A DNA stretch of 37,092 nucleotides. Origin: Bacteroidia bacterium. GTDB taxonomy: Bacteria > Bacteroidota > Bacteroidia > NS11-12g > UBA955. The translations under genes and the position numbers were made by a program. The stretch spans positions 1-37,092 of the forward strand of contig JANWHK010000145.1 of NCBI GenBank assembly GCA_025450395.1. The letters are read 5' to 3'. The notes beneath the pieces are model-generated. The model was not told the DNA's origin. It saw nothing but the letters and a program-made list of their open reading frames with translations, and did no database searches. Of this stretch, positions 1 through 28,373 are shown in pieces. Every line of letters starts with the position of its first letter. Position 1 is the stretch's first letter.

Positions 1-2
1 GC

Positions 3-314
3 ATATCCAGTTTTACAAACTTGATTGATACCGAAGGTATTTATAAAATATTTGAAGGGAGTTCTGTCGCATTTATCAGGAAAGGATCCCTGGGTATTGT
101 TTTTGACCATAAAATAGAGATCATTCCATCAGAATATTTAAATGAGGATATGGAAAAAATTGAAGCGTCAGCAAGACCATTCAAATTTGACAAGATGCAT
201 ATTCTGGGTCTTATAAAATATAAAACTCATACACTCAGGATCGACCATCATATCCTGAAGGATTTGGAAGCATTAACAGTGAATAAATTATGGGAAAACC
301 AGCAGCAAGGCTAA
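3..314 (+). CDS. hypothetical protein, probably 5'-truncated by the window edge
   Basis: The frame has no stop from nt 3 to the TAA at 312-314. The listed ORF starts at a TTG (21), so the true start may lie upstream of the window. No motif recognised. The 3' end overlaps the PAAR gene start by 25 nt. Confidence 0.35.
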   Translation: MSSFTNLIDTEGIYKIFEGSSVAFIRKGSLGIVFDHKIEIIPSEYLNEDMEKIEASARPFKFDKMHILGLIKYKTHTLRIDHHILKDLEALTVNKLWENQQQG

Positions 315-769
315 CCGATTTTCATATGTGCCCCATGCAGACACCTGGCACTCCGCCTATACCGCATGTCGGTGGACCAATAACAGGCCCCGGCAGTCCG
401 ACAGTTTTAATCGGAGGTATGCCGGCCGCAGTGATGGGAGATATGTGTACTTGTGTTGGCCCGCCGGATACAATCATATTGGGTTCTACAGGCGTATTGA
501 TAGGCGGCAAGCCTGCGGCCCGTATGGGTGATTCTACAGCCCATGGGGGAAAAATCATGTTAGGTTGCATGACTGTATTGATAGGAGAATCAGGTGGTGG
601 TGGTGGTGGCGGAATGGGAGGCATGCCTGTCAGCGTATTGTTGAATGTCATGAAAAGCATGCCGGAGAATATGCAGAAGAATATGGCACAAGTGGTGGCG
701 ATGAAAGAGGCGGCAGCTATGGGGGTTCCGTTTTGTGAAGTTTGTGCAGCTGCGGCGCTTAAGGGGTAG
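290..769 (+). CDS. PAAR-domain spike-tip protein with Gly7 linker and Met/Ala-rich C-terminal tail
   Basis: Three PAAR-type motifs (GKPAARLTD, GMPAAVMGD, GKPAARMGD) spaced as in PF05488, with conserved Cys/His (HMCP, CTCVGP, STAHGG). These are followed by SGGGGGGGMGG and a ~55-aa tail. Confidence 0.85.
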   Translation: MGKPAARLTDFHMCPMQTPGTPPIPHVGGPITGPGSPTVLIGGMPAAVMGDMCTCVGPPDTIILGSTGVLIGGKPAARMGDSTAHGGKIMLGCMTVLIGESGGGGGGGMGGMPVSVLLNVMKSMPENMQKNMAQVVAMKEAAAMGVPFCEVCAAAALKG

Positions 770-788
770 TAAACCAAAGTTATTAAAC

Positions 789-1127
789 ATGACGAATTTT
801 CAAATTTCAAGAAAACAAATGGCCGTATTTAATCGTCACTTTTCGGATATCCTGATCCGGAAAATAACAGATGTATTGAATGAGACCTTTGCCAGTGAAA
901 TAGAAAAGCTTGAGTTAAAAAATGATGAAGCGTTAACTATTATCATAAAAGACGGACTTGCAAAAGCGGAATTATTGGGATTAAAGAAGGATGATCACCG
1001 ATGTGCCTATATAGTCTTATCCATCTATAATTTAACAAAGAGGATTAGTGACAAGGATTTTGATTCCATCAGGAAACGAATCGCAAAGAACAACAAATCG
1101 GTTTTGGACTTTGTAAATATGTACTAA
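789..1127 (+). CDS. hypothetical 112-aa helical protein (possible PAAR/toxin partner or immunity)
   Basis: ATG at 789 lies 19 nt after the PAAR stop. The track ORF from GTG 735 would overlap PAAR. The gene ends 4 nt before the toxin ORF. No family recognised. Confidence 0.5.
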   Translation: MTNFQISRKQMAVFNRHFSDILIRKITDVLNETFASEIEKLELKNDEALTIIIKDGLAKAELLGLKKDDHRCAYIVLSIYNLTKRISDKDFDSIRKRIAKNNKSVLDFVNMY

Positions 1128-1131
1128 GAAA

Positions 1132-2001
1132 ATGGGAGAACCTTGTACCCTTCCGCCGGCTCATTCCTCAAAAATTTCGTCTGCTTTAGGTGGGACGACT
1201 GCTGCGGTATCTTCATGTCCACACCGGGCGAAGGACTCCCCTTTCACCGACCATACTGCTGAACATCTAATGGGAGAGGTCAAGGTGGATTCAAGTGGAG
1301 ATAAAAAAGCGGTGGGTTGTCATTTGGCCGCAGCCGTAGCAAGTGGAAAAGCAAGACACAAAAAGGACGCTCCCGTGACTTATGGGCCAAATCCGCCGGG
1401 TTATTATGATGTAGCAGTTGAAATATGTGACGGTACTGAATGGGTTGAAAAAAAAGCATCTTCCACATTTTTCCCTGATGATCTGACCCCCGCGGAAGTT
1501 GAGGCAGAAGTCCTGAGCGCTTTTAAGAATTCCAAGGACGATGGGGATGGCGGATGGGAAGGAACTTCTGACAACGGACTTTTAATAAGGGGTTATTATG
1601 GGAAGGACGCTTCAAACAATGATGATAAAACTAAGATTGCAACAGCATTTCCTGTTTGCAAGGAAGTAGAAGAAAAAAGAGGGTTAGAGGAAAGACAAAA
1701 GGAAATTGCCCTTGAAAAAAAGAAAGTAGAAGCTGAAAAGAGCAAGATAAAAAAGGAAAAGGAGACCCTGGAAGCAAAAGACAAACAATTCGATAACATC
1801 AAGAATGATAAGGTAAAATCGGAAAAAAAAGCAGGAATAGTCAAGGAAAGGGAAGCGATGAAAACAGATCATGAAGCCCGCGAAAAGACTGTTAAAACCG
1901 ATGAAGATAAAGTAAATAAAAAACAGGAAACCCTTGACAAGGACCAAAAGACCTTTGATGACAACCAAAAGGTCTTGAAAACAAAGCATGTAAAAACATA
2001 A
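1132..2001 (+). CDS. EndoU-like (bacterial EndoU nuclease family) RNase toxin with C-terminal Lys/Glu-rich coiled-coil tail
   Basis: The motif series resembles PF14436: DHTAEHLMGE...VGCH, YYDVAVEI, SSTFFPDDLTPAEVEAEVLSAF, GLLIRGYY, KIATAFPV. Residues ~178-289 are a K/E/D-rich heptad-like tail. Confidence 0.65.
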   Translation: MGEPCTLPPAHSSKISSALGGTTAAVSSCPHRAKDSPFTDHTAEHLMGEVKVDSSGDKKAVGCHLAAAVASGKARHKKDAPVTYGPNPPGYYDVAVEICDGTEWVEKKASSTFFPDDLTPAEVEAEVLSAFKNSKDDGDGGWEGTSDNGLLIRGYYGKDASNNDDKTKIATAFPVCKEVEEKRGLEERQKEIALEKKKVEAEKSKIKKEKETLEAKDKQFDNIKNDKVKSEKKAGIVKEREAMKTDHEAREKTVKTDEDKVNKKQETLDKDQKTFDDNQKVLKTKHVKT

Positions 2002-2016
2002 GTAATAGAAAATGAT

Positions 2017-2448
2017 ATGAGTTTAAAAGAAGAAATAGAGGAAAAGAACCTTGAGGAGATTATAACAAAAAATACGGATACCATAGAGATGGTTTCATTT
2101 GAAGATGCCGGATGGGAATCTTCAAGCAATTTTTTTTATGATGTTAAAACAAACTATAATGACATGCAGGATTTTATTTCTGCAATGCTGCATAAGCTTA
2201 TAGAGATAGAATATTTGAAAGGCGAGTTTTTGGAAGGTTTTGTAAAAACAGGTATTTTTAATGATTTTACACAGGATAGGTATGGCAAATATCTTTCAAA
2301 GGCAAAATTAAAATTAGAGGATCCATTGTTGAAAGATGTTTCTGACTATGTAAGGGGAGTACGGATTATAGATGACTGGGACAAAAAATTCATGATAGTT
2401 GAAACCAAAAAATATTTTGTGTCTTATACCTGGGACACCACGGCATAA
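2017..2448 (+). CDS. hypothetical 143-aa acidic protein; candidate cognate immunity protein
   Basis: ATG lies 15 nt after the toxin stop on the same strand. It has no signal peptide, and its size and position are typical of immunity genes. No family recognised. Confidence 0.5.
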   Translation: MSLKEEIEEKNLEEIITKNTDTIEMVSFEDAGWESSSNFFYDVKTNYNDMQDFISAMLHKLIEIEYLKGEFLEGFVKTGIFNDFTQDRYGKYLSKAKLKLEDPLLKDVSDYVRGVRIIDDWDKKFMIVETKKYFVSYTWDTTA

Positions 2449-2477
2449 GCTGTTAACCCCTTTTAAATTCTAACGAT

Positions 2478-2726
2478 ATGCTCAGCCCTCTCAATACAGC
2501 ACATAACAGGAAACTCAACCTCTTAAGTCAAAGTGGTAAATTGTTGGCGCAAAAAAATGGTGAGTTTTATTTTTATATGGTATTGGATGGCAAATTGAAT
2601 TATTTTAAGTGTGAAGAAAACTTGTTTCACAAAAATTTTGAACAAACCTCTTCAACAGAATTAAAAGAACTCAATGAAGAAGAATGGAACGAATTGAAGA
2701 AAAAATGTAAAAAATATCCGTATTAA
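2478..2726 (+). CDS. hypothetical 82-aa protein
   Basis: ATG-initiated ORF in the same tightly packed + strand array. No motif recognised. Confidence 0.4.
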   Translation: MLSPLNTAHNRKLNLLSQSGKLLAQKNGEFYFYMVLDGKLNYFKCEENLFHKNFEQTSSTELKELNEEEWNELKKKCKKYPY

Positions 2727-2809
2727 TTCTCTGGCAATCCTATTTGGAGTGCTTTAATAATTTAATTAATGATCCAGTAAACTTCCCAAAATTTCAGTTT
2801 AAGCGCATA

Positions 2810-3490
2810 ATGCTCAACCAAATCAATTACATATTACTGGATGCAGCCCGCATGGGAGATACCATTGAAAAAGCGAAGGAGATCAATCCTGATTTTGATT
2901 CGCTTTATCGTGGCAGAAGTGAGGAATCCCTCGCTGTGGTGGCGCCATACCTGTTTTTATTCAGGCAAAATACGGACTTTGGAAAATGGTATATCGAAAA
3001 TGGTTGGGGTGATGCCTGGGGCATTTTAATCCGGTCACATCTGCCCATGCCGGAATTACACCGACATTTCCGCAAATTCCTGGTCGTTGGCACAGAAGAT
3101 ATGCAGGAGCTGTATTTCAGGTTTTACGACCCAAGGGTCTTGCGCATCTTTTTACCCACCTGTGACCAGCAGCAACTCAAGGAATTTTTCGGCCCGATTG
3201 AATATTTTATAATGGAAGATGCGGACAAGGATTGGGCCATCAGGTGCTGGTTGGAGAATGGTCATCTCCGCTCTGTTAAAATACCTATAGATGAACTGGT
3301 GAATAATACATTTAAATTTACATCTGCCAAGAAAACAGAGCCGGTTCAGGAAAATACAACAAATGATCAAAACAACTGGCAACCCAGTCCTTCAACACCC
3401 GTAGAAGGCAAGGATAAAAAAGACAAAAAAGAACCGTCGGAAAATAAGAAAGGCGGTTCCAAATGGGACAATTTTTTCTTTGAAGAGTAA
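2810..3490 (+). CDS. DUF4123 domain protein (T6SS effector adaptor/chaperone family, Tap-1/TEC-like)
   Basis: Signature matches: YILLDAARMG, VAPYLFLF, WGILIRSHLPMPELHRHFRKFL, LYFRFYDPRVLRIFLP. A low-complexity K/D/E tail ends in WDNFFFEE. I prefer ATG 2810 over the TTG at 2744. Confidence 0.8.
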   Translation: MLNQINYILLDAARMGDTIEKAKEINPDFDSLYRGRSEESLAVVAPYLFLFRQNTDFGKWYIENGWGDAWGILIRSHLPMPELHRHFRKFLVVGTEDMQELYFRFYDPRVLRIFLPTCDQQQLKEFFGPIEYFIMEDADKDWAIRCWLENGHLRSVKIPIDELVNNTFKFTSAKKTEPVQENTTNDQNNWQPSPSTPVEGKDKKDKKEPSENKKGGSKWDNFFFEE

Positions 3491-3532
3491 GCAATGATAT
3501 AAACTAAACTTGATACACATTCTTAAAAATCT

Positions 3533-5530
3533 ATGACCGCACACTTTCAATCGAATAAAAACAAACACCTTTACTTCATTTTCCTTTTACTTTTCCTGCC
3601 GCTTTTATTCCAAAGTTGCGTGGTTTCGCGCCCCAGGTATAAATCGATTGCAAGTTCGGACACGTTCAGTCAATTCAAGGTCATTCATAAACCATATTAC
3701 AAAAAGGAACTCAGCGGGTTTGGCAAGTTTTGCGCCGTCTTTTTGCCAGCTGCGGGTGCTTCTGCCGGTTACGTATTTGGCGACCAGGCGGGAATAAGCA
3801 ATAAGTATGCAGGAGCCGGAGCTGGTGCTATCGCAGGTTATGGCTTGTCGAGGCTCGCGTTTGTGATAGGTGGCAATAAAAAGGAAAGAAAACTGAAGGG
3901 ACATGGTGAATACCAGGATTGGCTCGATAAGTATAGCGATGAGAACTCAACCAATTGGGTATTGATCAATATTCCTACCCTTGGTGGCGACACAGCGATA
4001 TGGGCCATTGAAAGGGCCAGGGAAAAATCGTTTGTTCCATCCAGTTATGATGATGTTACATATTTTGCTGCAGCTTTTCCGAATAGCCAATATTTGCACC
4101 AGGTGATCCTGACGGCCAATAAGATCATAAGCAAGGAAGACCTTAAGAAATTAATAACCCAGTTCCCGAACCATCCTGCCATTGCGTTCACTAAAATTGA
4201 ACTGGTCAACAGGAGTCAATCAGAAGCGGAGATCAAGGCACTTGTTATTAAATACCCTGAGACGGCAAGCCAGGCTGAAAAGAAATATGCCGAATTGGTC
4301 CAGTCTTATGATTATTTATTGGCATTCGTCTTGAAATATCCAAAAAGCAATTATACGGATATTGCGGTTTTACATGCCATCTACCGCATGAGCCATGAAG
4401 AACTCAAAATGATAGACATGAAAGCAAGGGGATTGTCCAAGCCTTCCATCTACATGTCTGAGCCAGTAAAGTTAAAACTGCAACTGGCATTGGTCGAGTA
4501 TTCTGAGACATATAATGAAATGATGAAAACAATCCATGATTATCCCAATACACCTTTTGTAGTCAGGTTTGATGCAAAAATAGAGGATCTGGATTCTGCT
4601 AAAGCGATTTATGAGCGGCTCATCAATTATAAACCAACAATCCAGAAAAGTGGTATAAAGAAGGTGGCGACTGATTTAAAGGCGCAGTACTTAAAGAACA
4701 GGATGGATTATCCTGAAAACCTATTTGAACAGATGATAGGTGATGACAAATGGCTGAAAGAAGGACTTCCGCCCGGGATGTTCGATTCCATTGCGCTTAT
4801 TGCCGTCAAGGTATCCGGTACCGACTACTTTACCGGAACAGGGAAGTGGGAAAATATTAAACCCCAGGGTAAAGGCAAGTATTACAGGACAAACGGACAG
4901 ATTAGTGAAGGGAACTTTATTGATGGAAAACTGCATGGTCAGGGGATCAAACTGAAAACAGAGTTTGGAGAAAGATTGTTGTATGAAGGGGAATTTAATT
5001 ATGATGAATTAAACGGAAGGGGAAGAATGACTTCTCAAAGAGGGACCATATATGAAGGGATCTTTAAAAATGATGTCATGGAAGGCAAGGGTCGCATTTT
5101 ATACAAGGATGGAAGTTATGATACAGGCTATTTTTCCAATTTTAAATTGGAAGGCTTGGGCGAAAGGAAGTCCCGGAGGTTCACTTATATAGGAGGGTTT
5201 AAGTCCGGAAAATTTGAAGGCATTGGGAAATACCAATCGTTAAATGACAGCAGCAACTGGTTCAAGGGTCATTTTACAGGCGGAAAAAGGAACGGCCCGG
5301 GTGAACTGCATATTTCACCTGATTTTTTAGTCAGGGGTACCTGGTTAAACGATTGTCCTGAAAATACGATCAATCTCTTCAAGTATTCAGAGACGGATAA
5401 GACATTCAAACCTATCGGTACATGGAAAATTTCAAAATGTACAGTACTGAATAAGTCGGCTGATTCAAATGTTTTTAAGGTAAATGAAGCACAGGTGATG
5501 GAAAAGACCTGGGTGGATTATAGTGATTAA
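3533..5530 (+). CDS. 665-aa protein with lipoprotein-like N-terminus, glycine-zipper segment and C-terminal MORN repeats
   Basis: The N-terminus LLLFLPLLFQSC looks like a lipobox. The Gly/Ala zipper AAGASAGYVFGDQAG...AGAGAGAIAGYG covers ~nt 3716-3877. At least 6 MORN-type repeats (YEGEFNYDELNGRG, YEGIFKNDVMEGKG, YIGGFKSGKFEGIG, etc.) cover ~nt 4865-5300. Confidence 0.75.
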   Translation: MTAHFQSNKNKHLYFIFLLLFLPLLFQSCVVSRPRYKSIASSDTFSQFKVIHKPYYKKELSGFGKFCAVFLPAAGASAGYVFGDQAGISNKYAGAGAGAIAGYGLSRLAFVIGGNKKERKLKGHGEYQDWLDKYSDENSTNWVLINIPTLGGDTAIWAIERAREKSFVPSSYDDVTYFAAAFPNSQYLHQVILTANKIISKEDLKKLITQFPNHPAIAFTKIELVNRSQSEAEIKALVIKYPETASQAEKKYAELVQSYDYLLAFVLKYPKSNYTDIAVLHAIYRMSHEELKMIDMKARGLSKPSIYMSEPVKLKLQLALVEYSETYNEMMKTIHDYPNTPFVVRFDAKIEDLDSAKAIYERLINYKPTIQKSGIKKVATDLKAQYLKNRMDYPENLFEQMIGDDKWLKEGLPPGMFDSIALIAVKVSGTDYFTGTGKWENIKPQGKGKYYRTNGQISEGNFIDGKLHGQGIKLKTEFGERLLYEGEFNYDELNGRGRMTSQRGTIYEGIFKNDVMEGKGRILYKDGSYDTGYFSNFKLEGLGERKSRRFTYIGGFKSGKFEGIGKYQSLNDSSNWFKGHFTGGKRNGPGELHISPDFLVRGTWLNDCPENTINLFKYSETDKTFKPIGTWKISKCTVLNKSADSNVFKVNEAQVMEKTWVDYSD

Positions 5531-10235: not shown

Positions 10236-11963
10236 TTAAGGCTTCGTGATGATATTGGTACTTGTCAATACTACTGAACCATTCTGGGCAAGTAATCTTC
10301 CTTGTAAAGTTGCATATGAACCCATTGTAATGGATGTCAGGGCCAAAATATTGCCTTTAAATATAGTACTTACGCCAATGGTTGCGGAACTGCCTATTTG
10401 CCAAAAAACGTTTTTAGCCTGGGCACCACCGCTAAGTATGATATTGCCACCTGCTCCGCCTATTGTGGTAAAATCAGATGCTACCTGGAAAATCCATATA
10501 GCATTCGGGTCACCTTGGGCATCCAGGGTCAGGTCACCTAACTGTACCATCAGTGTAGATGTTGATTTGTAAATACCCGGGGCAAGTGTTTTACCTCCTT
10601 GATCACCGGCCACTGTGGCAGGTGCCGGAGCAGTTGCTCCTTCAATGAAAAGGTAGGCATCTGTAAGGTCCTGTTTGGCTTGTATAAGCATTGCAGGTGT
10701 GCCTGGAGGAGCAATGTCATCGGCAGCGAAGATAGAACCGTTCACCATGATTGCAGGTGGGAATCCGGTAATTTTAGAACGAACACCCGGGCTTAACCCG
10801 ATATCCATGTCATGGATCTCGCTGAAGCCAGCATTGTTGTTGATGGATATGCCTGCGAGAATACCGAAGTTGCCGGCAGATTTAAGATCTGGGCCTTGTG
10901 CACCTGTAAGTGTCTTGGTAGTAAAGCTCCATACCTTGTCATTGGCAAGTGGAGTTCCTGCAGGGTTCTTGGCTCCGGTACCGATGGTAGCTGTATAAGT
11001 GGTATTTGCCACTAAAAGATTGGTAGAAGTAAATGATATGGTTGAACCTGCATAAGTAACTACTCCCGGTATGGAAGTTAAGCCTTGTTTCAAGGTGAAG
11101 TTTGACGCAGTCATAGTCGATACTTCCATAGGCTCACTGAAAGTTGCGCTTATAGTTTTATCAAGAAGTATACCGATGGCATTGTTTAACGGGTCAGTAG
11201 AAATAACTGTAGGAGCTACTACAACTCCGGTGTTGAATGACCATACATAGTCAGCAGCTAAACCATTACCGGCCGCGTTCTTGGCTCCGGTGCTGATGGT
11301 GCAGGTATAAGCTGTATTGGATGCAAGGGCAACGGTAGGTGTAAAGAATGCTGTTGTACCGACGTAAACAACAGTTCCTGAAACTGCTGTTGCACCTTGT
11401 TTGATGGTAAAGCTGGTAGCAGGACTATTCAGTGTAGACGGATTCATTGGGACATTAAATGTCGCAGCTACTACTTTGTTAACGGCTACACCTGAGGCAT
11501 TATTTAAAGGGTCAGTAGAAATCACTGAAGGCATCAGGGTTGCACCTGTGCTGAAAGTCCACACATAATTGGCTTGCATCGCATTACCCGCTGCATCCTT
11601 AACTGTATTTTTTACAGTAGCTGTATAGGTTGTGTTAATAACAAGAGCAGTGGCAGGTGTAAAACTCAAGGTGGAATTGGCTGCATTATAAGTCAATGCA
11701 CCTCCGATATTGGATGTTCCTGTTAAAGTGAAGGCTGCAGAGTTCAAAGTAGCAGCATCCATCTTTGAATCAAAATTCACTGTAATGACCTGGTTAAGGG
11801 CTACATTGACAGCATCTTTAGAGGGAGTTGTTGACACCACTTTTGGATTCGTAGCGGTGGGGGTTGGTTCCTGCTTGTCTTTCTTGCAGGCGCCAATAAA
11901 CGTCGTTATGAATACGGCTGCAATAGCGGTCATCCATAATAGTTTTCTTTTTTGATGGTTCAT
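10236..11963 (-). CDS. lipoprotein with three SbsA/Big_5-type Ig-like repeats and a C-terminal ice-binding (DUF3494) domain
   Basis: Lipobox FIGAC. There are three ~100-aa repeats of the form P.V(I)ST(D)P...FTL...YT.T...AGN...W.F.T. DUF3494 motifs: AGNFGILAG...IGLSPG...ITGFPP and NVFWQIGSSATIG...FKGNILA...GRLLAQNGSV. Confidence 0.85.
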   Translation of the reverse strand: MNHQKRKLLWMTAIAAVFITTFIGACKKDKQEPTPTATNPKVVSTTPSKDAVNVALNQVITVNFDSKMDAATLNSAAFTLTGTSNIGGALTYNAANSTLSFTPATALVINTTYTATVKNTVKDAAGNAMQANYVWTFSTGATLMPSVISTDPLNNASGVAVNKVVAATFNVPMNPSTLNSPATSFTIKQGATAVSGTVVYVGTTAFFTPTVALASNTAYTCTISTGAKNAAGNGLAADYVWSFNTGVVVAPTVISTDPLNNAIGILLDKTISATFSEPMEVSTMTASNFTLKQGLTSIPGVVTYAGSTISFTSTNLLVANTTYTATIGTGAKNPAGTPLANDKVWSFTTKTLTGAQGPDLKSAGNFGILAGISINNNAGFSEIHDMDIGLSPGVRSKITGFPPAIMVNGSIFAADDIAPPGTPAMLIQAKQDLTDAYLFIEGATAPAPATVAGDQGGKTLAPGIYKSTSTLMVQLGDLTLDAQGDPNAIWIFQVASDFTTIGGAGGNIILSGGAQAKNVFWQIGSSATIGVSTIFKGNILALTSITMGSYATLQGRLLAQNGSVVLTSTNIITKP

Positions 11964-13605: not shown

Positions 13606-14040
13606 ATGAAAAAACTAAAAATTTATTTAATGGCCGCAATGATCGGATTAACCGCTTTAGCATTTGAATCATGCAAAAAAGGCGAGGATGATCCCGTCAT
13701 TTCATTAAAAACGAGAAAAGACCGTTTCACCAACACTTGGGTATTGGTTAAATACGAAAAGGATGGTGCCGACCAGAATATCAGCGGAAGCACTTATACC
13801 TATGATGTATTCGCCAATAACAAATTGACCCAGACCATTGAAGGAGCTGTCTTTGGTTTCCCTGTGAAATCTGTTAAAAGCGGTGACTGGGAATTTGTCA
13901 ACGATGAAGAGGATGTAAGGATCACTATTGAAGGTGATGTACAGCTTTATAATGTTCAAAGGTTGGCTAGCAACGAACTGTGGTTGAAAAGATTGTCCGG
14001 TGGTAGTACACACATGTATTACTTCGAAACCAAACAATAA
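13606..14040 (+). CDS. small lipoprotein (lipocalin-like?)
   Basis: Signal peptide plus lipobox (LTALAFESC). The TNTWVLVKYEKDG pattern resembles lipocalin-like lipoproteins. A terminator follows. Confidence 0.65.
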   Translation: MKKLKIYLMAAMIGLTALAFESCKKGEDDPVISLKTRKDRFTNTWVLVKYEKDGADQNISGSTYTYDVFANNKLTQTIEGAVFGFPVKSVKSGDWEFVNDEEDVRITIEGDVQLYNVQRLASNELWLKRLSGGSTHMYYFETKQ

Positions 14041-14085
14041 TCAAACAGCTGCCGTTAAAGCGGAAAACAAATTAAAACCTCAAAA

Positions 14086-14124
14086 AGGCTTTCAGTTTAT
14101 TTCAAACTGGGAGCCTTTTTTTTC
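14086..14124 (+). terminator. Rho-independent terminator
   Basis: AGGCTTTCAGTTT (14086-14098) pairs with AAACTGGGAGCCT (14104-14116), including two G:U pairs, and is followed by T8. Confidence 0.65.
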
Positions 14125-14194
14125 ATGTGAATCATATAATGTTTATATATAATTATATAATAAAAGAATCCCGTACAAATTACAATTTTGTAAC

Positions 14195-14494
14195 ATGAAA
14201 TCAAATGAAGCACAACTTGTCAATCTGATAAGGCGACAAAACCGGGCTGCATACGAATATCTTTGCCAGCAATGCGGTTCTGCCTTATTTAATATCTTGT
14301 TAAAATCCGTAAGGAATGAGGAAACTGCGAAGAAACTTCTGCAAGATGTATTTATTAAAATATGGAAAAATATCGGTTCATTTCCTGAACGCGGCAGGTT
14401 GTATAACTGGATGCTGAATGAAGCCAGGAAAATGGGAGTTGATTATTTAAGGTCTAAACAATTAGGCAATGAATATCAATATCAGACAAATTAA
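14195..14494 (+). CDS. sigma-70 region-2-only protein (ECF-like, no region 4)
   Basis: LLQDVFIKIWKNIGSF...YNWMLNEARKMGVDYLRSK matches ECF sigma regions 2.1-2.4. The ORF stops after 99 aa with no region-4 HTH. Confidence 0.6.
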   Translation: MKSNEAQLVNLIRRQNRAAYEYLCQQCGSALFNILLKSVRNEETAKKLLQDVFIKIWKNIGSFPERGRLYNWMLNEARKMGVDYLRSKQLGNEYQYQTN

Positions 14495-14820
14495 ACATAT
14501 TAAATATATATGAAATCAATCTTATCAATTAAAAGATTTGGACTTGACATGCTTGTCGCATTGTTTTCTCCAAATGTTATGGTATTTAATGCTGTACCCA
14601 TACATAAGGCCACAACTGCAAATACAAAACAAGCGGTGGTACAAAAGTATTTTAAGTACTGACTTATATTTAACGATTTAATGTTGAAAGAGAATTTCAT
14701 GCCAGTCGTGAAATTCTCTTTGTTATTTTATATTGTGGTTTTAAAATATGTTTAGTGCTTAAAATATATGGAAAATATCTTGTTTATAAATAAAATATAT
14801 ATTTAAATTAAAAAATATCA

Positions 14821-16524
14821 ATGAGTGTGAAACCGCATAAAAGAGCTTTGCGTCTGGTCATCTGGATCATTTCAATTGGGTTTATTGCTTTTGTAGGGCT
14901 GCATCTCAGCTTTGTTTTTTATTTTAATGGCAAGATATGCAGGGACCTTCAAAAGGAGTTTCTCAGGCAAACCCATGGAGAGTATGAACTGCAGATAGAA
15001 AAACTGGTTACAAACATATTCCTGAAATCCGTTTATCTTAAGGGCATAAATGTAAGTCCGGTGGCGGGTCTACGCACTGAAGCAACCAAATATCATATAT
15101 CAGCGGCTAATATAAATCTTGAGAATTTTAGCCTGTTTTTATTTCTGACCCAAAGGGATATGAAATTTAAAAGGCTTGAACTTGCAGAACCAAAAGTTAT
15201 CATTTTCAGGAATAATGTTGACATAGAGCCTGATCATCCCAAGGTAAAAAAAGCACAGTTCTCTCTTTATATGTTGCTGAAGAATCATATTCATTCATTG
15301 AGTGTGAGAAAAATACAGATGCGCAACGCGGAAATTAAAGTCTACGTGGATGATAAGGATTCCATATTATTGCTCAACAGCAAGGATAATGAGTTGCATA
15401 TTTCCGAGCTTAGTATTGATGAAGTGTCAGAGCGGGCGGGGCACTTGTTCCTGGCTGAAAAGATACAACTGGCCATCCACAAGTTTTCCTTTACAACGCT
15501 TGACAGCCTGTATACAGTGCGTGTAAGCAAGGTGTTTGCCTCTTATACAGATTCATCCGTATCGATGGATTCAGTCAGGCTTATTCCTAATTATTCACGC
15601 AGGCATTTTGCCGGGGCAGCAGGTGAACAGACAGACAGGATGAAGATATCAGCCTTAAAAGTAGAATTCAACAGGATGGATGTCAAACTGTTTTTTGAAA
15701 AAAACTGGTTTATCGCCAGGCAGCTAAAAATAACCAACTTTAACCTGGAGGCATACAGGGATAAAAACGATTCAAGAAAGCCGCATACCCCCCGTTCGAT
15801 ACAAGCACTTATCAAGAACATTCCGGTGTATATCAGGATAGATTCCATCTGTGTGAATCATGCTAAATGTACCTACGAAGAAGTTGCAGAGGGAGCATCT
15901 GAACCTGGTAAAATCTCTTTTAACAATGTGCATGCTGTGATAACCGGGTTCACGAACAGGCAATCGGGAAATGCAAAGTATGCAGTCCTGGCAGTACATG
16001 CCTCCTGCATGTTGATGAATACAGGCAAGCTGAGGGTTTATTATGGGTTCCCGTTAAATACTGAAAAGATGGTTTTTGATTGTTCGGGATACTTGCAGGG
16101 CATGCCTTTTACGGAGTTGAACAAGGTGCTGGAGCCTATTGCAAAAGTATCAATTTTGCAGGGTGAGATCGATTCAATGATCTTTTCTTTTCACGCGGGT
16201 GACGTCAGTTCTGAAGGCACAATGAAACTGTTGTACCATGACCTGAAGATACAGATACTTAAAAAGAAGGACAAACTTTTTGTGCGGGAGCAGCTTCTTT
16301 CTTTCCTTGCGCACAGATTAATCATTAAGGAACAAAACCCCTCAGGGAACAGGCCGGTACGCATTACCAGGATACATCACCGCCGTGATGAGGATCGTTT
16401 TATTTTCAATTATTCATTAAAATCGATCTTAAGTGGGATCAAAACTACGATTGGGATGCCTGACTCAGATAAAATGAAAATAATTGATAAATTAAAAGGG
16501 AAACGTAAAAGGAACAGAGATTAG
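14821..16524 (+). CDS. N-terminally anchored 567-aa protein, possibly AsmA/DUF748-like
   Basis: A single N-terminal TM (LVIWIISIGFIAFVGLHLSFVFYF) is followed by a long beta-rich region and a basic C-terminus. The family call is tentative. Confidence 0.55.
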   Translation: MSVKPHKRALRLVIWIISIGFIAFVGLHLSFVFYFNGKICRDLQKEFLRQTHGEYELQIEKLVTNIFLKSVYLKGINVSPVAGLRTEATKYHISAANINLENFSLFLFLTQRDMKFKRLELAEPKVIIFRNNVDIEPDHPKVKKAQFSLYMLLKNHIHSLSVRKIQMRNAEIKVYVDDKDSILLLNSKDNELHISELSIDEVSERAGHLFLAEKIQLAIHKFSFTTLDSLYTVRVSKVFASYTDSSVSMDSVRLIPNYSRRHFAGAAGEQTDRMKISALKVEFNRMDVKLFFEKNWFIARQLKITNFNLEAYRDKNDSRKPHTPRSIQALIKNIPVYIRIDSICVNHAKCTYEEVAEGASEPGKISFNNVHAVITGFTNRQSGNAKYAVLAVHASCMLMNTGKLRVYYGFPLNTEKMVFDCSGYLQGMPFTELNKVLEPIAKVSILQGEIDSMIFSFHAGDVSSEGTMKLLYHDLKIQILKKKDKLFVREQLLSFLAHRLIIKEQNPSGNRPVRITRIHHRRDEDRFIFNYSLKSILSGIKTTIGMPDSDKMKIIDKLKGKRKRNRD

Positions 16525-18353
16525 TCATACCCTACGGTGCTTGGTTTCCCAACGTCAAAACTCCTGACCTTTAGTGTGAAACTTCCAATGGGGTTAAACT
16601 TAAACACATCCCTTCCGCCTCCCGGCAATTCAGGATAAAAGCCGACTGTAAATTCAAAACTACTGTTCAGCAGGTTTTCATTCCTGAGCAAAGCGCCGAT
16701 TGAATAGGCCTGGTAGATCTTGCTCGAAAGGTATTTTTTTGTATCAGATTCAAGCATGCCAAAACCTATGAATGCGATTGGCGCAAATTTAAACCCTATG
16801 ATATTGTACGGTGCATAAGCCACGGCTTCCAGGTTGAGTATCATCTTGCCGGTACCCAGCAGGTCACCGGGGTCAAAACCATACATTTCTCCAGGCTTGA
16901 GCGTAATGCGTTCATATGGTTCCTTATTCAGGCCATGTACAAATTTATAGTTCACAAAGTTCCGAAAATACCATTTTCCCTTCTGTTTGAGGTCGCTGAA
17001 GTAAAATACGCTTGCATTGATGGTGGAATTATTTTTAACACCGGTTTTGTAATAGGTGCCATAAATGAAACTTCCCGAAAAATATCCAAACTTTTTATAA
17101 TGGCTTCCGTGTGAAACCTCAAATCCTGAATAATAACGGACGCCTTTGAGCTCTTTCTGAATGACGCCATAAATGGCTTGTATCAATAATCCTTCAGGTA
17201 CATCCTCGTTGGCACCAAATCGGTAGATAAACTGGTCCTTATAATATTTCCTGAGTGAATAACCGATGTTGGCCAGGTAAATATCCGTATGTACATTCAG
17301 CATATTGGTATCGATGGCGAATGATGGCCTTTGGAGATAACGGAGTTCGGAATATCTTAGGCCCGTGATGATATTGCTGTTTTTTTCAGTACGTTTCCTT
17401 TTTCCCAATGCATAACTTCTTGCCAGCCAGAAGTCATAATTGTAATAATCGAGCGGGACATATCTTTCCTTGGGTTCCACCGTGTCGGTGTATAGATAGC
17501 GACCCCAGATCCTGTTGCCTTCGACACCTCCCGCCCAACGCGTAAGCGGTGAATAAAAAGGCCGGTTAAATGATATCCCTATTTTTGTTTCCGCCTTTGT
17601 AGTGGCATAATACAGGTTTGAAGTAATAAAAGTATTTTTGATATTTGAGATATTGTAGTTACCCCTGTAATCATATCCTGTAGTCGTATAATAACCAATC
17701 CTTTGTTCATACGTATGCCCCAGTCCGCTGAGATTTCGGTCCCTGAAACGGATCCAGCCACCGGTGGTTCCACCGCTTACAGTCACATCCAGGCTCCATT
17801 TGTCGAGTACCTTCACTACCACATCCACACTGTCAGCTTTCCTGTCACCTACAATGGTGATACGGGCATCATTGATATATCCTGCCTGCCTCAACAACCT
17901 TTCAGACTCGGTAATCCTGATGAGTTGCACCGTGTCATCGGGGCCAAAAAGAAGTATATTCCGGATGATGCGGTGACGTGTCCTGATGTGTAACTTGTTG
18001 CCGGTTCTCTGGAGTTTATTGGTATTCCGGGTGAAGGTGTCATTCACAGAATAACCGAAGGGGTTATATACTATGATGGTGATAGTCCGGATGATCTTGC
18101 CTACGTATTTTGCATTCGGGTCCCTTTTTTTCTGTTCATTTGATAAAGGTTTTTTCTCGTATTGCTGACGTATCGGTTCTACGAAAATCGCTTCATACAG
18201 CAATTTGCTTACTTTGTGCTTGGACGCAGATCTTTTTATTTTTTTATAAATATTCAGGGTGTCCCTTTCCTGGGCATGCAGTCCGGCGAAGGAAAACAAT
18301 ATCAAACAAAGAAGTAAGCGTCTGTAGTATTTAATTGCTATGGCCTTCGACAT
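16521..18353 (-). CDS. Omp85-family (BamA/TamA-like) outer-membrane protein
   Basis: Signal peptide ending GLHAQ, a POTRA-like segment (ITESERLLRQAGYINDARITIV...VDVVVKV), and a Tyr/Gly-rich beta-barrel region. Confidence 0.65.
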   Translation of the reverse strand: MSKAIAIKYYRRLLLCLILFSFAGLHAQERDTLNIYKKIKRSASKHKVSKLLYEAIFVEPIRQQYEKKPLSNEQKKRDPNAKYVGKIIRTITIIVYNPFGYSVNDTFTRNTNKLQRTGNKLHIRTRHRIIRNILLFGPDDTVQLIRITESERLLRQAGYINDARITIVGDRKADSVDVVVKVLDKWSLDVTVSGGTTGGWIRFRDRNLSGLGHTYEQRIGYYTTTGYDYRGNYNISNIKNTFITSNLYYATTKAETKIGISFNRPFYSPLTRWAGGVEGNRIWGRYLYTDTVEPKERYVPLDYYNYDFWLARSYALGKRKRTEKNSNIITGLRYSELRYLQRPSFAIDTNMLNVHTDIYLANIGYSLRKYYKDQFIYRFGANEDVPEGLLIQAIYGVIQKELKGVRYYSGFEVSHGSHYKKFGYFSGSFIYGTYYKTGVKNNSTINASVFYFSDLKQKGKWYFRNFVNYKFVHGLNKEPYERITLKPGEMYGFDPGDLLGTGKMILNLEAVAYAPYNIIGFKFAPIAFIGFGMLESDTKKYLSSKIYQAYSIGALLRNENLLNSSFEFTVGFYPELPGGGRDVFKFNPIGSFTLKVRSFDVGKPSTVGYD

Positions 18354-18426
18354 TATATCATGTATTTGTAAAGATAAACAAATATATTGATTTTAAGCGA
18401 TAGGCCAGGCTAAAATCAAGGAACAT

Positions 18427-18885
18427 TTAAGAACCCATGAACAGGGCCTCGTCGACTCTGTCCCTGTCTATCCTTTTTTCCTCTTCCTCGTCCAGTTTTT
18501 TCTGTTTTATTTTTTTGTTTAGCAGAAGTTTGAGCAGGCCGGTCCCTGCAGATTTTATGAGCTCTGATTTCTTTGATACAACATTCGTAACGCCAAATTG
18601 CAATAAAGTTCCAAGCAGGTTCTTAAGAGGGTTGTGAGTGGATCCTACTACCATTTTTTTGGTGAGATATCCGGTGCCCAGGCCAACAGCGTAATTCACG
18701 AGATTGTTTTTTAAATCAGGCGACTCAGTTATTTCGTTAACTGCATTCCTGATCAGGTTGGCTGGTTTAAGGCTCACCTGCATGAGATGGAATTGTTCCT
18801 TCATTATATTCTTTTCCAGGGCGCATTGCGTTTCCAGGTTCTTGATTTTTGTGTCAAGTGATTCTTTATAGTTGATTGGTGGCAT
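18427..18885 (-). CDS. hypothetical protein of the stress cluster
   Basis: ATG ORF lying 14 nt downstream of the Holin-X-like gene on the same strand. Amphipathic and Gly-rich in the middle, with a charged C-terminus. Confidence 0.55.
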   Translation of the reverse strand: MPPINYKESLDTKIKNLETQCALEKNIMKEQFHLMQVSLKPANLIRNAVNEITESPDLKNNLVNYAVGLGTGYLTKKMVVGSTHNPLKNLLGTLLQFGVTNVVSKKSELIKSAGTGLLKLLLNKKIKQKKLDEEEEKRIDRDRVDEALFMGS

Positions 18886-18899
18886 AATGTATAATATCG

Positions 18900-19241
18900 T
18901 TAATTAAGTATGTGCCTGATGATCGAATTGCTGACAGGAGTTTTAACAAGTTGTTTTCTGCCAGCGAGGAAAATGATCGTGACCAGCAGGTAAACTCCGG
19001 CAACGACAAAGAATCCCATGTAGGGTTTTCCAAGATAATCTCCAATCCACAAGGATAATCCGATGCTGAGTATAAAGATGAAAAGTACTGTAATCACTAC
19101 TATTGCCAGGTCGGCGACCAGGGAGGATACAGTTTCGGAGATGGTCCTTATGGCTTTTAATTTCATTAATTCAATGCTGCTTTTTCCATAATTTTCAGCA
19201 CTGTCGGCGAGGGATTCCAATATCGTTGTTTTGTCTTCCAT
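18900..19241 (-). CDS. Holin-X / phage-holin-3_6-like two-TM membrane protein
   Basis: An N-terminal amphipathic helix followed by two TM helices is the typical layout of PF07332-like proteins found beside YtxH genes. Confidence 0.6.
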   Translation of the reverse strand: MEDKTTILESLADSAENYGKSSIELMKLKAIRTISETVSSLVADLAIVVITVLFIFILSIGLSLWIGDYLGKPYMGFFVVAGVYLLVTIIFLAGRKQLVKTPVSNSIIRHILN

Positions 19242-19279
19242 GATTTTTTTGTTTTTAATTTATTTAAAAATAGACCTGT

Positions 19280-19525
19280 TCAGGCTGTATAAATGTCTTC
19301 TGCCTTTGAACTGCCTGATTTGTTATCTTTGACGGATTCAAACTGCTGCATGTGTTTCTCACGCCAATGTGCAAATTTGTGTTTGATGTCAAGTGCATAA
19401 TCTCCACCTTTCTTCACGATTTTTTTCCTGGTTTCAACTCCTTTATCCGGTGCAAATAATATCCCTATGGCGGCACCAACTGCAACGCCAGCCAATACGC
19501 TTAACAGTACTTTACCTGATGTCAT
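19280..19525 (-). CDS. YtxH domain protein
   Basis: GKVLLSVLAGVAVGAAIGILFAPDKGVETRKK is the YtxH signature. Confidence 0.85.
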   Translation of the reverse strand: MTSGKVLLSVLAGVAVGAAIGILFAPDKGVETRKKIVKKGGDYALDIKHKFAHWREKHMQQFESVKDNKSGSSKAEDIYTA

Positions 19526-19553
19526 AATTCTTTAATTTAGCGGTTATGTTGAT

Positions 19554-19709
19554 TTATATTGGTTTTTTACCCTCGAGAAGCCTCATCAAGATTGAAATAA
19601 TTGCAAACACCAGCAGTACATGGATCATGGAGCCCAAGGTATAAATAAAGAATCCTATGGTCCAAAAAACAAGTAGGATGATTGCAATTAAATAAAGTAG
19701 GTTTCCCAT
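19554..19709 (-). CDS. lmo0937-family small membrane protein (51 aa; below the ORF-track cutoff)
   Basis: Hand translation gives MGNLLYLIAIILLVFWTIGFFIYTLGSMIHVLLVFAIISILMRLLEGKKPI. This is the two-TM pattern typical of that family. Confidence 0.65.
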   Translation of the reverse strand: MGNLLYLIAIILLVFWTIGFFIYTLGSMIHVLLVFAIISILMRLLEGKKPI

Positions 19710-19720
19710 GGTTTTAAAGT

Positions 19721-20068
19721 TTAAAATTCTTCATCATCATCCATTGATTCATCATCGCGGATGTCCTCGTCAAAATCTTCGTCATCATCGGGAGAAGGTC
19801 TTCCTTTGTATATATTCTCCTTTTTATAAGTATTTCCGGTCTGGTTCGCTATATCCCTTTCATTTTTGACATGTGCTGTTTCTTCAGGGTAATCCCAGTC
19901 TTTCCTTCTTCCTTCAGGGTTTTGACCTCGGGGTTTTTTCTGCTGCATCTCATCTGACTCTGGTGATTTGCCGCTTGGTTTCTCATGTTGACGATTACCT
20001 GGATAATCTTGGTTTTTTTGATTTGCAGGGTTCATCCGGCCCTGTGGTTCTTTTTGTTTGTCTTTCAT
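19721..20068 (-). CDS. hydrophilic, predicted intrinsically disordered protein with acidic C-terminus
   Basis: No hydrophobic core, rich in Q/N/K/E/P, C-terminus DDDEDFDEDIRDDESMDDDEEF. The N-terminus MKDKQKEPQG resembles that of 21109-21486. Confidence 0.55.
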   Translation of the reverse strand: MKDKQKEPQGRMNPANQKNQDYPGNRQHEKPSGKSPESDEMQQKKPRGQNPEGRRKDWDYPEETAHVKNERDIANQTGNTYKKENIYKGRPSPDDDEDFDEDIRDDESMDDDEEF

Positions 20069-25628: not shown

Positions 25629-25650
25629 AATCTGTCTATTGCAGTGACAA

Positions 25651-27940: not shown

Positions 27941-28373
27941 ATTTATATTTATAAAAATTGGTTTTTAATAGAAGTCTGCATCCATGTTTTACACCTGAAT
28001 TTTAGTGAGTATTTTTACTTAAAGAGTAATAAATACTACTGATTATCAGATACTTATACACAAATATAGGAACCGAAGTTAAAATAATTTAAGAATGTGC
28101 AGAAACTTTGATGAATTGGTCGTAATCACTTGATAACCAGTCAAATTATTTTTATTAATTTTGAATAAAAAAGTTGATTTAAAGGCAAAAAATCATGTTT
28201 TTGAGTTCCTTGCAAAGTTTTTTAAAGAGTTTATTCTTGTGAAAATGAACTTTTATTCCGTAAAAAAATAATATATCATTATTGGCCCCCAAACTGGGTC
28301 ACTTTAGTAATTGGTCATGCTTATTCCACCTCACGGGATATTGGCTCCATTTTGTTTTGTTATTCGATTTTCC

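Follow-up and report, generated by a model that had tools for sequence, protein, structure and literature searches.

The closest described system is the PAAR4/TecT/co-TecT/TseT/TsiT module of the Pseudomonas aeruginosa H2-T6SS (Burkinshaw et al. 2018, as summarized in PMC11582642). In this T6SS-i module, a free-standing PAAR protein with a C-terminal extension is combined with TecT, a DUF4123 protein that has the conserved N-lobe only, with the separate small co-adaptor co-TecT, which acts as the effector-binding lobe, and with TseT, a DNase effector that has no PAAR domain; the immunity gene lies downstream. Both split adaptors and PAAR C-terminal extensions have published precedent (PMC11582642). 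Bilobed Tap adaptors (the set compared here comprises V. cholerae Tap-1/VasW, P. aeruginosa Tap6 and Tap14, P. putida Tap3 and EAEC Tla1) unite two lobes in a single protein. A conserved Cys pair is found in VgrG helix-turn-helix motifs bound by DUF4123 proteins (PMC11582642), and the Tap3 C-lobe is a helical bundle (PMC12909789). The published Tap survey was limited to 220-350-aa proteins from nine proteobacterial genera (PMC11582642), so that the proteins described below fall outside it.

In the T6SS-iii of Bacteroides fragilis GA3, each effector is placed on the spike tip by accessory proteins of its own, whose genes adjoin that of the effector: Pte3, a PAAR-like DUF4280 protein, acts with the beta-barrel adaptor Ate3, and a canonical PAAR protein serves Bte2. 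DUF4123 has been described as a feature of enterobacterial orthologous loci rather than of Bacteroidota ones (PMC13402684), a 2026 paper sets Bacteroidota adaptors against enterobacterial DUF4123, and our literature search returned no paper on DUF4123 in T6SS-iii. EndoU domains (PF14436) are found in polymorphic toxins such as CdiA-CT, T7SS LXG proteins and Rhs tips, where large delivery proteins carry them as a C-terminal tip.

The window analyzed here is one entire NCBI contig of 37,092 bp. Its left end carries eight closely set + strand ORFs, as the preliminary description had reported, and the spacings given there (-25, 19, 4, 15, 29, 83 and 42 nt) are exact when the DUF4123 gene starts at 2810, in agreement with the deposited 226-aa protein. 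The PAAR, EndoU and DUF4123 identities proposed there each score above the Pfam gathering threshold, and the reading of the island as a contractile-injection cargo module of Bacteroidota is supported, specifically for T6SS-iii, by homologous modules in T6SS-iii clusters. We consider it likely that the first 3.5 kb form a T6SS-iii spike-tip cassette of a Bacteroidota member, probably of Chitinophagales, in which a split Tap adaptor would load an EndoU toxin, with the core genes beyond the contig end.

The PAAR spike-tip gene (290-769, + strand; PAAR_motif PF05488, 89.4 bits, E 1.7e-25) encodes a PAAR domain (aa 1 to ~100, nt 290 to ~590) with three legible motifs, KPAARLTD, MPAAVMGD and KPAARMGD, followed by a Gly-rich linker (aa ~101-112) and a tail (aa ~113-159, nt ~626-766) of two predicted helices and a GVPFCEVC motif; a single-sequence model of low confidence places tail helices at 114-123, 126-143 and 150-157. 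Across the related loci (79 were retrieved; 554 candidate stretches encode a relative), PAAR identity over the best segment is 59-86%, and the CxxC is present in 29 of 33 tails. As in bilobed Tap systems, the spike component bears a helix-turn-helix with a Cys pair, but here PAAR and not VgrG carries the putative docking motif. The window carries a canonical three-motif PAAR with DUF4123, unlike the Pte3 system, and no DUF4280 was detected in it.

The DUF4123 gene (2810-3490, + strand; PF13503, 106.7 bits, E 1.1e-30) encodes a TecT-like one-lobe adaptor. Its conserved core (aa 24-190, numbered from the 2744 start) is followed by a low-complexity Lys/Glu/Pro tail, and, as for the N-lobe of bilobed Taps, the Pfam model matches along with part of the NCBIfam Tla1 profile, the latter weakly and over its N-terminal part only. 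Identity to the DUF4123 proteins of six related loci is 37-72%, reaching 72% with L015. The DUF4123 proteins of related loci consist of the N-lobe only: 47 such ORFs have a median length of ~184 aa, and most extend no more than 13 residues past the shared core. When loci are counted as independent despite their relatedness, the PAAR tail and DUF4123 tend to occur together (20 loci with both, 3 with the tail only, 8 with DUF4123 only, 17 with neither; p=1.4e-4), and so do a ~120-aa helical family and DUF4123 (21 with both, 3 and 7 with one alone, 17 with neither; p=9e-5).

This helical family is represented in the window by ORF 789-1127 (+ strand), which scores 32.4 bits (E 5e-11) against an HMM of 20 ORFs from the loci that leaves out the window sequence. 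Members occur in 41 of the 79 loci, mostly within 110 nt 3' of a PAAR gene or directly after VgrG, and, at 50% identity, form no fewer than 518 clusters among 1.84 billion representatives; neither Pfam nor NCBIfam has a matching model. The true start is probably 789 and not the deposited 819, since the conserved I6 and Q10 precede the latter. The predicted structure is a four-helix bundle (pLDDT 75), unlike the beta-barrel of Ate3. By query-normalized TM-score, its best match (0.63) is chain B of the complex between an adaptor and its effector, Tap3-Tke5; judging by its length, we take this chain to be Tap3. In Foldseek the match falls short of significance (E 5.4, probability 0.41).

In a natural fusion, P0098, the same family follows a DUF4123 domain on its C-terminal side (DUF4123 at residues 22-144, E 3.2e-28; helical family at 184-295, hhalign probability 98.5%, E 2.3e-15). 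The architecture of P0098 is that of a classical bilobed adaptor whose C-lobe is supplied by the helical family; this type of C-lobe has no match in the C-terminal part of the Tla1 profile. P0098 is the one fused protein among the best 150 family members. Directly 3' of its gene lies that of a Tle1-like effector, which shares 41% identity with the effector encoded in a split cassette. We propose that the 789-1127 product corresponds to the C-terminal lobe of a Tap/DUF4123 adaptor, now a separate protein that would bind the effector in the manner of co-TecT.

In the related loci, a tailed PAAR, a ~120-aa helical protein, a variable effector, an immunity gene and a short one-lobe DUF4123 form a recurrent cassette, and the order helical protein-effector-immunity-DUF4123 was found ~30 times; in the Pseudomonas module the order is PAAR, TecT, co-TecT, effector, immunity. 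Effectors are swapped between cassettes (Tle1-like, LysM-bearing or unknown), and Tle1-like and other unrelated effectors are likewise associated with bilobed Taps. Homologues of the PAAR/DUF4123 module occur in MAGs of Chitinophagaceae, Saprospiraceae, Cytophagales and Flavobacteriales, inside or right after clusters with TssB, TssC, Hcp, VgrG, TssE, TssF, TssG, ClpV, TssN and TssO; two of these clusters yielded the T6SS-iii-specific TssN and TssO.

The island had been called an orphan, with no core genes nearby. For positions 5.6-37 kb this stands: Pfam finds no T6SS or eCIS core gene there, and tblastn of the window, with the T6SS-iii proteins of six related loci as queries, hit nothing but the PAAR and DUF4123 genes, so that no T6SS core gene of this genome is visible within the 37,092 bp and only unrelated genes lie 3' of the cassette. 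The T9SS gene also mentioned is a protein with a T9SS C-terminal sorting domain at 28504-30909. The earlier view was, however, a downstream one only. The contig begins 289 nt 5' of the PAAR start, so a lack of upstream core genes is not demonstrable; orphan status is not supported, and the appearance is an artefact of the contig end. Most likely, the core genes lie just past the left end. At the left edge, an ORF truncated by the contig end retains its 3' part (3-314, + strand, at least 104 codons), which runs 25 nt into the PAAR gene and has no homologue in 5.8 billion proteins or in 1,196 ORFs of the 79 related loci. In related loci, too, small ORFs that vary from locus to locus separate the PAAR gene from VgrG or TssF.

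A detached, PAAR-led auxiliary module far from any T6SS-iii core or VgrG, supplying an alternative spike tip in trans, would leave the loading mechanism unchanged and differ in genomic linkage alone. In its favor, of the 60 related loci that extend 4 kb or more upstream, 18 have no same-strand VgrG there, and a few (L017, L018, L033, L042 and L047) have no core gene within 10 kb. In addition, ORF 3-314 is not VgrG-like. However, where the PAAR-to-helical adjacency is the same and at least 4 kb lie upstream, VgrG is found 1.8-9.1 kb upstream in 17 of 19 loci; the other two have none, and one of them lacks any core gene within 10 kb, so that truly detached modules do exist. The + strand also has no Bacteroidota-type promoter motif TAnnTTTG before 6333, a weak sign that transcription enters from upstream. 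We regard a detached module as improbable, though it is the most credible of the alternatives to a cassette at the end of a T6SS-iii cluster.

The effector slot is occupied by an EndoU-family RNase toxin (1132-2001, + strand; EndoU_bacteria PF14436, 48.7 bits, E 1.2e-12), which comprises an N-terminal tag containing one Cys (MGEPCTLPP...) and a linker (together aa 1 to ~44), the EndoU domain (aa ~45-175, nt ~1264-1656) and a Lys/Glu tail (aa 176-289, nt 1657-1998; 56% charged residues, pI 9.2). It is 29-39% identical to T7SS LXG and CdiA-type toxin tips and to stand-alone EndoU proteins. It shares H45, K107, FFP 113-115 and T171/A172/P174 without change with Cronobacter, Priestia and Bacillus EndoU toxins. 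Its second catalytic His (GCH64) lines up approximately with the G-x-H motif of the other three. The His, His, Lys and Ser/Thr-Phe-Phe-Pro motifs of polymorphic EndoU toxins are kept. In contrast to CdiA-CT, LXG and Rhs tips, the domain lies near the N-terminus of a 289-aa protein, behind the short tag, and the 114-residue charged tail follows it; this layout and the small size for an effector of this slot tell against the favored reading.

As in those toxin systems, a candidate immunity gene follows directly (2017-2448, + strand). Its 143-aa product is acidic (pI 4.6), without signal peptide or Cys, and the candidacy is based on position and charge only; our searches, the 79 related loci included, found no homologue, and it shows no similarity to immunity genes beside other EndoU toxins. 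The next ORF (2478-2726, + strand, 82 aa) is a candidate second immunity or accessory protein. It shares a Y-(Y/F)-K-C-E-E-x-(L/V)-F motif with relatives adjoining DUF4123 genes in L018 (7153-7320) and L023 (15201-15503). The preliminary statement that the five ORFs besides PAAR, EndoU and DUF4123 match nothing recognizable thus holds, within the searches run, for 3-314 and 2017-2448 but not for 2478-2726, with relatives in two cargo loci, or for the conserved 789-1127 family.

A decaying remnant, with a shortened effector and orphan immunity genes fired by no machine, is quite unlikely. In its favor, the 289-aa effector is among the shortest of its slot (typically 350-920 aa, with cases of 219 and 299 aa), no island protein clusters with any other of 15 billion sequences at 90% identity, and GC drops to 0.335 at 2-3 kb. 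Against decay, the eight ORFs are intact and close-spaced with one start-stop overlap, and the EndoU catalytic residues, PAAR motifs, CxxC tail and invariant residues of the helical family are retained.

An eCIS (Afp/PVC-like) cargo module, which the preliminary description had offered as an alternative, is very improbable: PAAR proteins do cap eCIS particles, some classes are mainly eCIS-linked (PMC8651086), and any secretion machinery of this genome would lie outside the contig, but related loci with machinery carry TssB/C, Hcp, TssE/F/G, ClpV and TssN/O, no eCIS gene was noticed in the related loci (without a targeted marker search), Pfam found no eCIS-linked DUF4157 in the island proteins, and DUF4123 is a T6SS adaptor family in every characterized case (PMC12909789, PMC11582642).

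The product of the neighboring gene (3533-5530, + strand; MORN PF02493, 61.4 bits, also above the gathering threshold) is 665 aa long and combines a signal of the lipoprotein type (LLFQSC) with a Gly-zipper segment and MORN repeats at its C-terminal end. A suggested pairing with DUF4123 is unlikely because of this signal and because the protein is missing from the cassette in all related loci, where unrelated genes follow DUF4123; the single relative, in L033, is on the opposite strand. The MORN lipoprotein is probably outside the cassette.

Of the novel partners suggested for an uncharacterized module, at least one is real, the conserved 789-1127 family beside PAAR or VgrG; the proposed mechanism has its parallel in TecT/co-TecT (PMC11582642). 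The cassette differs from the Pseudomonas module in its probable T6SS-iii setting, its EndoU RNase in place of a DNase, and its order PAAR, co-adaptor, effector, immunity, DUF4123, by which the proposed adaptor halves flank the effector-immunity pair. In the spike-tip cassette we favor, the PAAR protein would cap the VgrG spike, with its flexible helix-turn-helix tail and conserved CxxC held behind the glycine linker. The DUF4123 protein is proposed to grip this tail, as the proteobacterial Tap N-lobe grips the C-terminal helix-turn-helix of VgrG or PAAR, and the four-helix protein, as the separated second lobe, would hold the effector, probably via its short Cys-containing N-terminal tag. The toxin would then be fired into a neighboring bacterium and cleave RNA there, while the acidic 2017-2448 product, possibly with the small 2478-2726 protein, may protect the producer.

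All eight plus-strand ORFs that the preliminary description placed between positions 3 and 5530 were recovered, and the spacings reported for them are exact when the DUF4123 gene is read from 2810, which is also the start of the deposited 226-aa protein. The domain assignments held as well: searches with PF05488, PF14436 and PF13503 placed the PAAR protein (290-769; 89.4 bits against a cut-off of 27), the EndoU-type toxin (1132-2001; 48.7 bits against 25.3) and the DUF4123 protein (2810-3490; 106.7 bits against 25.8) above the gathering scores. Four island products in all exceed curated Pfam thresholds (PAAR_motif, EndoU_bacteria, DUF4123 and MORN), and the remaining ones have no match in Pfam or NCBIfam. 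The motifs PAAR, PAAV and PAAR can be read directly in the translation of 290-769. The earlier statement that the other five ORFs match nothing stands for 3-314 and 2017-2448; it was overturned for 789-1127, which belongs to a family, and for 2478-2726, which has relatives in two other loci.

With the PAAR protein as query, 79 related loci were retrieved; a relative is encoded in 554 candidate stretches. The loci derive mostly from MAGs of Chitinophagaceae, Saprospiraceae, Cytophagales and Flavobacteriales, with PAAR identities of 55-86%. Upstream of the PAAR homologue, locus L015 carries TssB, TssC (725 bits), Hcp, VgrG, TssE and TssF, while the clusters of loci L005 and L031 encode the T6SS-iii-specific TssN and TssO, together with ClpV in L005 and TssG in L031. 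The island had been suggested to belong to either a T6SS-iii or an eCIS, and these core genes beside related loci favor the former. Pfam detected no eCIS sheath, tube, baseplate or ATPase gene and no DUF4157 in the window, nor did an eCIS gene come to notice in the related loci, whose examination was not aimed at eCIS markers.

One gene order recurs about 30 times among the related loci. It begins with a PAAR gene whose 150-170-aa product bears a C-terminal tail, followed within about 110 nt by an ORF of ~120 aa, a variable effector gene (typically 350-920 aa), a putative immunity gene (200-390 aa) and a short DUF4123 gene. Occupants of the effector slot include Tle1-like phospholipases, a LysM-bearing protein and unknowns. 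The window matches this order gene for gene, with the EndoU RNase in the effector slot. Saprospiraceae loci have the small ORF directly after VgrG and the PAAR gene after DUF4123, and the invariant unit is therefore the small ORF, effector, immunity and DUF4123 genes beside a spike gene. This unit is repeated in tandem in L011, and in L013 one DUF4123 gene stands behind two PAAR-small ORF-effector-immunity units. Homologues of 789-1127 thus co-occur with PAAR or VgrG, an effector and DUF4123, as the neighborhood comparison proposed earlier was meant to reveal. The notion of novel partners is retained for the unannotated family of 789-1127; the island itself is a recurrent cassette and not a partner-less assembly.

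The preliminary description also regarded the island as an orphan. Downstream, the absence of T6SS core genes was confirmed, since T6SS-iii proteins from six related loci, searched against the whole window by tblastn, matched only the PAAR and DUF4123 genes. Upstream, the label is not supported. The window is a complete contig of 37,092 bp with only 289 nt ahead of the PAAR gene, and because ORF 3-314 is truncated at this end and runs 25 nt into the PAAR gene, the operon continues upstream. VgrG is found upstream on the same strand in 42 of the 60 loci that have at least 4 kb of upstream sequence. It could be argued that the window's genome holds a truly detached auxiliary cargo module, as loci L017, L018, L033, L042 and L047 do among the relatives. 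We consider this unlikely, given that 17 of 19 loci that share the PAAR-to-small-ORF adjacency and have at least 4 kb upstream carry VgrG 1.8-9.1 kb upstream; 18 of the 19 have some core gene within 10 kb. ORF 3-314 has no homologues in the protein database or among the ORFs of related loci, it is not VgrG-like, and its identification as a VgrG C-terminus was rejected. No synteny was found between the other 30 kb of the window and the related loci.

The small ORF at 789-1127 was recovered at 32.4 bits (E 5e-11) by an HMM built from 20 small ORFs from which the window sequence had been excluded, and an iterated search found its family in 41 of the 79 loci. A full HMMER scan of 1.84 billion representatives returned at least 518 clusters at 50% identity (E<=0.001), nearly all of them stand-alone proteins of 110-140 aa, with a few tandem duplications. 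The family has no Pfam or NCBIfam model, and its database members are unnamed or labeled 'hypothetical'. Two-domain proteins of about 220-270 aa are encoded at L002 6954-7730, L007 2316-3089, L032 10405-11220, L057 247-1029 and L064 4002-4766, and the database member P0041 is another; such a tandem protein might be one co-adaptor for two effectors, or a simple gene duplication. The deposited protein from the window has only 102 aa and starts at 819. This deposited start, probably mis-called, leaves out Ile6 and Gln10, which are invariant in the family, and translation therefore probably begins at 789. An AlphaFold model of 789-1127 is a four-helix bundle (pLDDT 75). Foldseek found no significant match to this model in the PDB. 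The best query-normalized TM-score, 0.63, was to chain B of a Tap3-Tke5 complex (others 0.18-0.35), a chain that we took to be Tap3 because of its length, and we regard this predicted resemblance only as a lead. Tap3 itself has a C-lobe of about 104 residues that folds as a bundle of five helices (PMC12909789). Searches of PDB sequences with the family profile and with the DUF4123 protein gave nothing meaningful.

DUF4123 (Tap) adaptors are bilobed, with a conserved alpha/beta N-lobe that binds the short C-terminal helix-turn-helix of VgrG or PAAR and a variable helical C-lobe that binds the effector (PMC11582642). For Pseudomonas aeruginosa the same paper describes TecT as an N-lobe only, which binds the C-terminal extension of PAAR4, and co-TecT as a separate protein that binds the nuclease TseT (PMC11582642). 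The DUF4123 protein of the window matches the NCBIfam Tla1 model, which has 245 positions, over positions 11-159, and the conserved core of the protein extends to near aa 190, followed by a low-complexity tail only. Its relatives are similarly short: about 184 aa is the median for the 47 DUF4123 ORFs found in the loci, which share a core corresponding to window residues 24-190, counted from the alternative start at 2744, and mostly end no more than 13 residues beyond it. A bilobed architecture in one polypeptide is not what the window encodes, and since there is no C-lobe in the same polypeptide we classified this protein as a split, TecT-like form. A published survey of DUF4123 proteins applied a 220-350-aa filter to nine proteobacterial genera (PMC11582642) and therefore excluded short proteins of this kind from Bacteroidota.

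If the adaptor is split, the helical family is the candidate for its other half. Both the helical family and a short DUF4123 gene are present in 21 loci, 3 and 7 loci have one only and 17 have neither (Fisher p=9e-5); as the loci were chosen by PAAR similarity and counted without phylogenetic correction, this co-occurrence is supporting and not decisive. A natural fusion provides a second line of evidence. In the 303-aa database protein P0098, DUF4123 spans residues 22-144 (E 3.2e-28), and residues 184-295, in the position of the C-lobe, belong to the helical family (hhalign probability 98.5%, E 2.3e-15). Its gene (L083/L084 8001-8912) lies directly upstream of genes for a Tle1-like effector and a DUF2931 protein, and this effector is 41% identical to the split-cassette effector of L003. 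Members of one effector family are thus paired with a fused adaptor in one genome and with two separate genes in another. Close to a contig end, the P0098 gene follows a gene for a ShlB/POTRA transporter; no VgrG was found within 8 kb upstream of it. Assignment of the helical family to the Tla1 type of C-lobe was rejected, as Tla1 matches the N-lobe only, both in the fused protein and in the DUF4123 proteins of the loci. Taken together, the co-occurrence, the P0098 fusion and the four-helix model make 789-1127 the probable separate counterpart of the adaptor C-lobe.

The spike protein has a plausible docking site for such an adaptor. Behind a Gly linker, the PAAR protein ends in a tail of about 47 aa, in which two predicted helices lead to a terminal G-x-P-F-C-x-x-C. 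The tail is conserved among the 33 PAAR proteins compared, of which 29 have the CxxC, and it co-occurs with DUF4123 (p=1.4e-4, with loci chosen by PAAR similarity treated as independent). A single-sequence model of the PAAR protein (pLDDT 32) shows a helix pattern in the tail, which we count as weak evidence. Based on these sequence features, we propose that the PAAR C-terminal extension can serve as a DUF4123 docking site. The DUF4123 N-lobe would dock on the PAAR tail and the helical protein would hold the effector, making the island a T6SS-iii spike-tip cargo cassette with a divided, Tap-like adaptor.

The identity of the effector as an EndoU enzyme follows from the Pfam match, which covers residues 48-175 and profile positions 11-128 of 129, and from tblastn against plasmid-borne toxins, in which residues 1-175 were 29-39% identical to T7SS LXG and CdiA-type toxin tips and to stand-alone 'EndoU domain-containing' proteins. 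A word-indexed search with the protein found only itself, and no match was found among PDB sequences. H45, K107, F113-F114-P115 and T171/A172/P174 are invariant in a comparison with three annotated EndoU toxins, and GCH64, with the second His, aligns approximately with their G-x-H motif. We take the two His and the Lys to be the catalytic residues of the EndoU family; because these conserved residues are kept, the enzyme looks active. The EndoU domain lies near the N-terminus, behind a short tag (MGEPCTLPP...), and is followed by a tail of 114 residues (aa 176-289; 1657-1998) that is 56% charged (35 Lys/Arg, 29 Asp/Glu; pI 9.2) and may form a single long charged helix. The usual order, with the delivery domain at the front and the toxin at the end, is inverted here.

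Of the 40 effectors encoded after a helical-family gene, 26 have a single Cys within their first 45 residues, against a background of 40% in other ORFs. It stands in contexts such as VQPCP, IQSCP, ISCxS and, at 1132-1160 of the window, EPCT, with the other loci ranging over L002-L064, and is followed by a charged or Pro-rich linker, and the effector beside the fused adaptor has it too (IQKCP; L083 8917-9100). The N-terminal Cys tag is likely a recognition tag of these effectors. In L005, L008 and L030 the tag is on a separate ORF of 93-125 aa. It is conceivable, if quite improbable in our estimation, that the CxxC of the PAAR tail and the Cys of the effector tag are functional and form a redox- or metal-dependent latch. 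Such a latch would keep PAAR, adaptor and effector joined in the attacker's reducing cytoplasm and free the toxin in the prey's oxidizing periplasm, and, if real, would constitute a built-in cargo-release switch for T6SS-iii. Colautti et al. noted a conserved Cys pair in the DUF4123-bound helix-turn-helix motifs of VgrG and raised a similar idea, without data (PMC11582642).

Two genes separate the toxin from DUF4123. The product of ORF 2017-2448 (143 aa, pI 4.6) lacks Cys residues and a signal, and its position in the immunity slot makes it a candidate immunity protein. It has no relatives among the ORFs of the related loci and shows no similarity to the immunity genes beside other EndoU toxins. 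ORF 2478-2726 has relatives at L018 7153-7320 and L023 15201-15503 that share a Y-(Y/F)-K-C-E-E-x-(L/V)-F motif; this family sits beside DUF4123 genes in three unrelated cargo loci, either before, after or one gene away.

The last island gene (3533-5530) encodes a protein with a lipoprotein-type signal read from its sequence (…LLFQSC), a Gly-zipper segment and C-terminal MORN repeats. This protein, which had earlier been paired with DUF4123, was rejected as a DUF4123 cargo on account of the lipoprotein-type signal and the lack of conservation in the cassette. The only relative in the related loci is on the opposite strand in L033. Elsewhere the slot after DUF4123 holds unrelated genes, some of them clear second effectors (phage-type lysozyme, Tle1-like, anthrax-toxin-like). 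We therefore consider the MORN gene a probable neighbor rather than cargo, which may still be co-transcribed with the cassette: no plus-strand TAnnTTTG precedes position 6333, although this is weak evidence. The count of this motif in the whole window is at chance level. Scans of the window for sigma-70 promoters and terminators likewise gave counts at chance level.

Beyond the island, Pfam identified an MFS transporter, a CNNM/CorC protein, a radical SAM enzyme, a histidine kinase, an adenylate cyclase and an 801-aa protein with a T9SS sorting domain. A minus-strand gene at 10236-11963 encodes a protein in which three Big_5 Ig-like domains are combined with an ice-binding-like domain, compatible with an origin in a cold or freshwater environment. 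Ku and a split LigD, with phosphoesterase, ligase and primase-polymerase genes after Ku, form a non-homologous end-joining set (24271-27517). At 31425-32174 (minus strand), a rifampin ADP-ribosyltransferase of the Arr type (Arr-ms) is fused behind a TPR-like N-terminal region and adjoins a TPR-adenylate cyclase gene. Minus-strand ORFs of 610, 152 and 115 aa at 16521-20068 have no Pfam match, and a 113-aa protein among them has a sub-threshold holin-like hit (PF07332; 26.2 bits against a cut-off of 28.4). GC content falls to 0.32 at 14001-15000 and to 0.31 at 28001-29000, just before and at the start of the T9SS-sorted protein gene, compared with about 0.41 elsewhere.

By analogy, the system of the window would work like PAAR4/TecT/co-TecT/TseT, and each of its parts is of a known kind (PAAR, DUF4123, EndoU); the EndoU RNase itself is an ordinary kind of toxin. 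New here are the adaptor halves that bracket the effector-immunity pair and the T6SS-iii setting of DUF4123, as is the unannotated helical co-adaptor family. Our literature search found no paper on DUF4123 in T6SS-iii, and in a study from 2026 the adaptors of Bacteroidota are set against enterobacterial DUF4123. The natural pair of fused and split adaptors could be used to test the two-lobe model of Tap adaptors, and the unannotated family, with its 518 or more clusters at 50% identity, gains a proposed function. Searches for further T6SS-iii effectors and their immunity proteins could also follow a simple genomic rule, which is to examine the genes between a ~120-aa helical gene and a short DUF4123 gene. 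T6SS-iii cargo loading has been studied almost only in gut Bacteroides, where the accessory proteins known are PAAR-like DUF4280 proteins and beta-barrel adaptors. The window and its relatives point to another route in environmental Bacteroidota (Chitinophagales, Saprospiraceae, Cytophagales and Flavobacteriales), one based on DUF4123, in which a PAAR protein with a docking tail would be combined with a two-gene adaptor arranged around a swappable effector-immunity pair.
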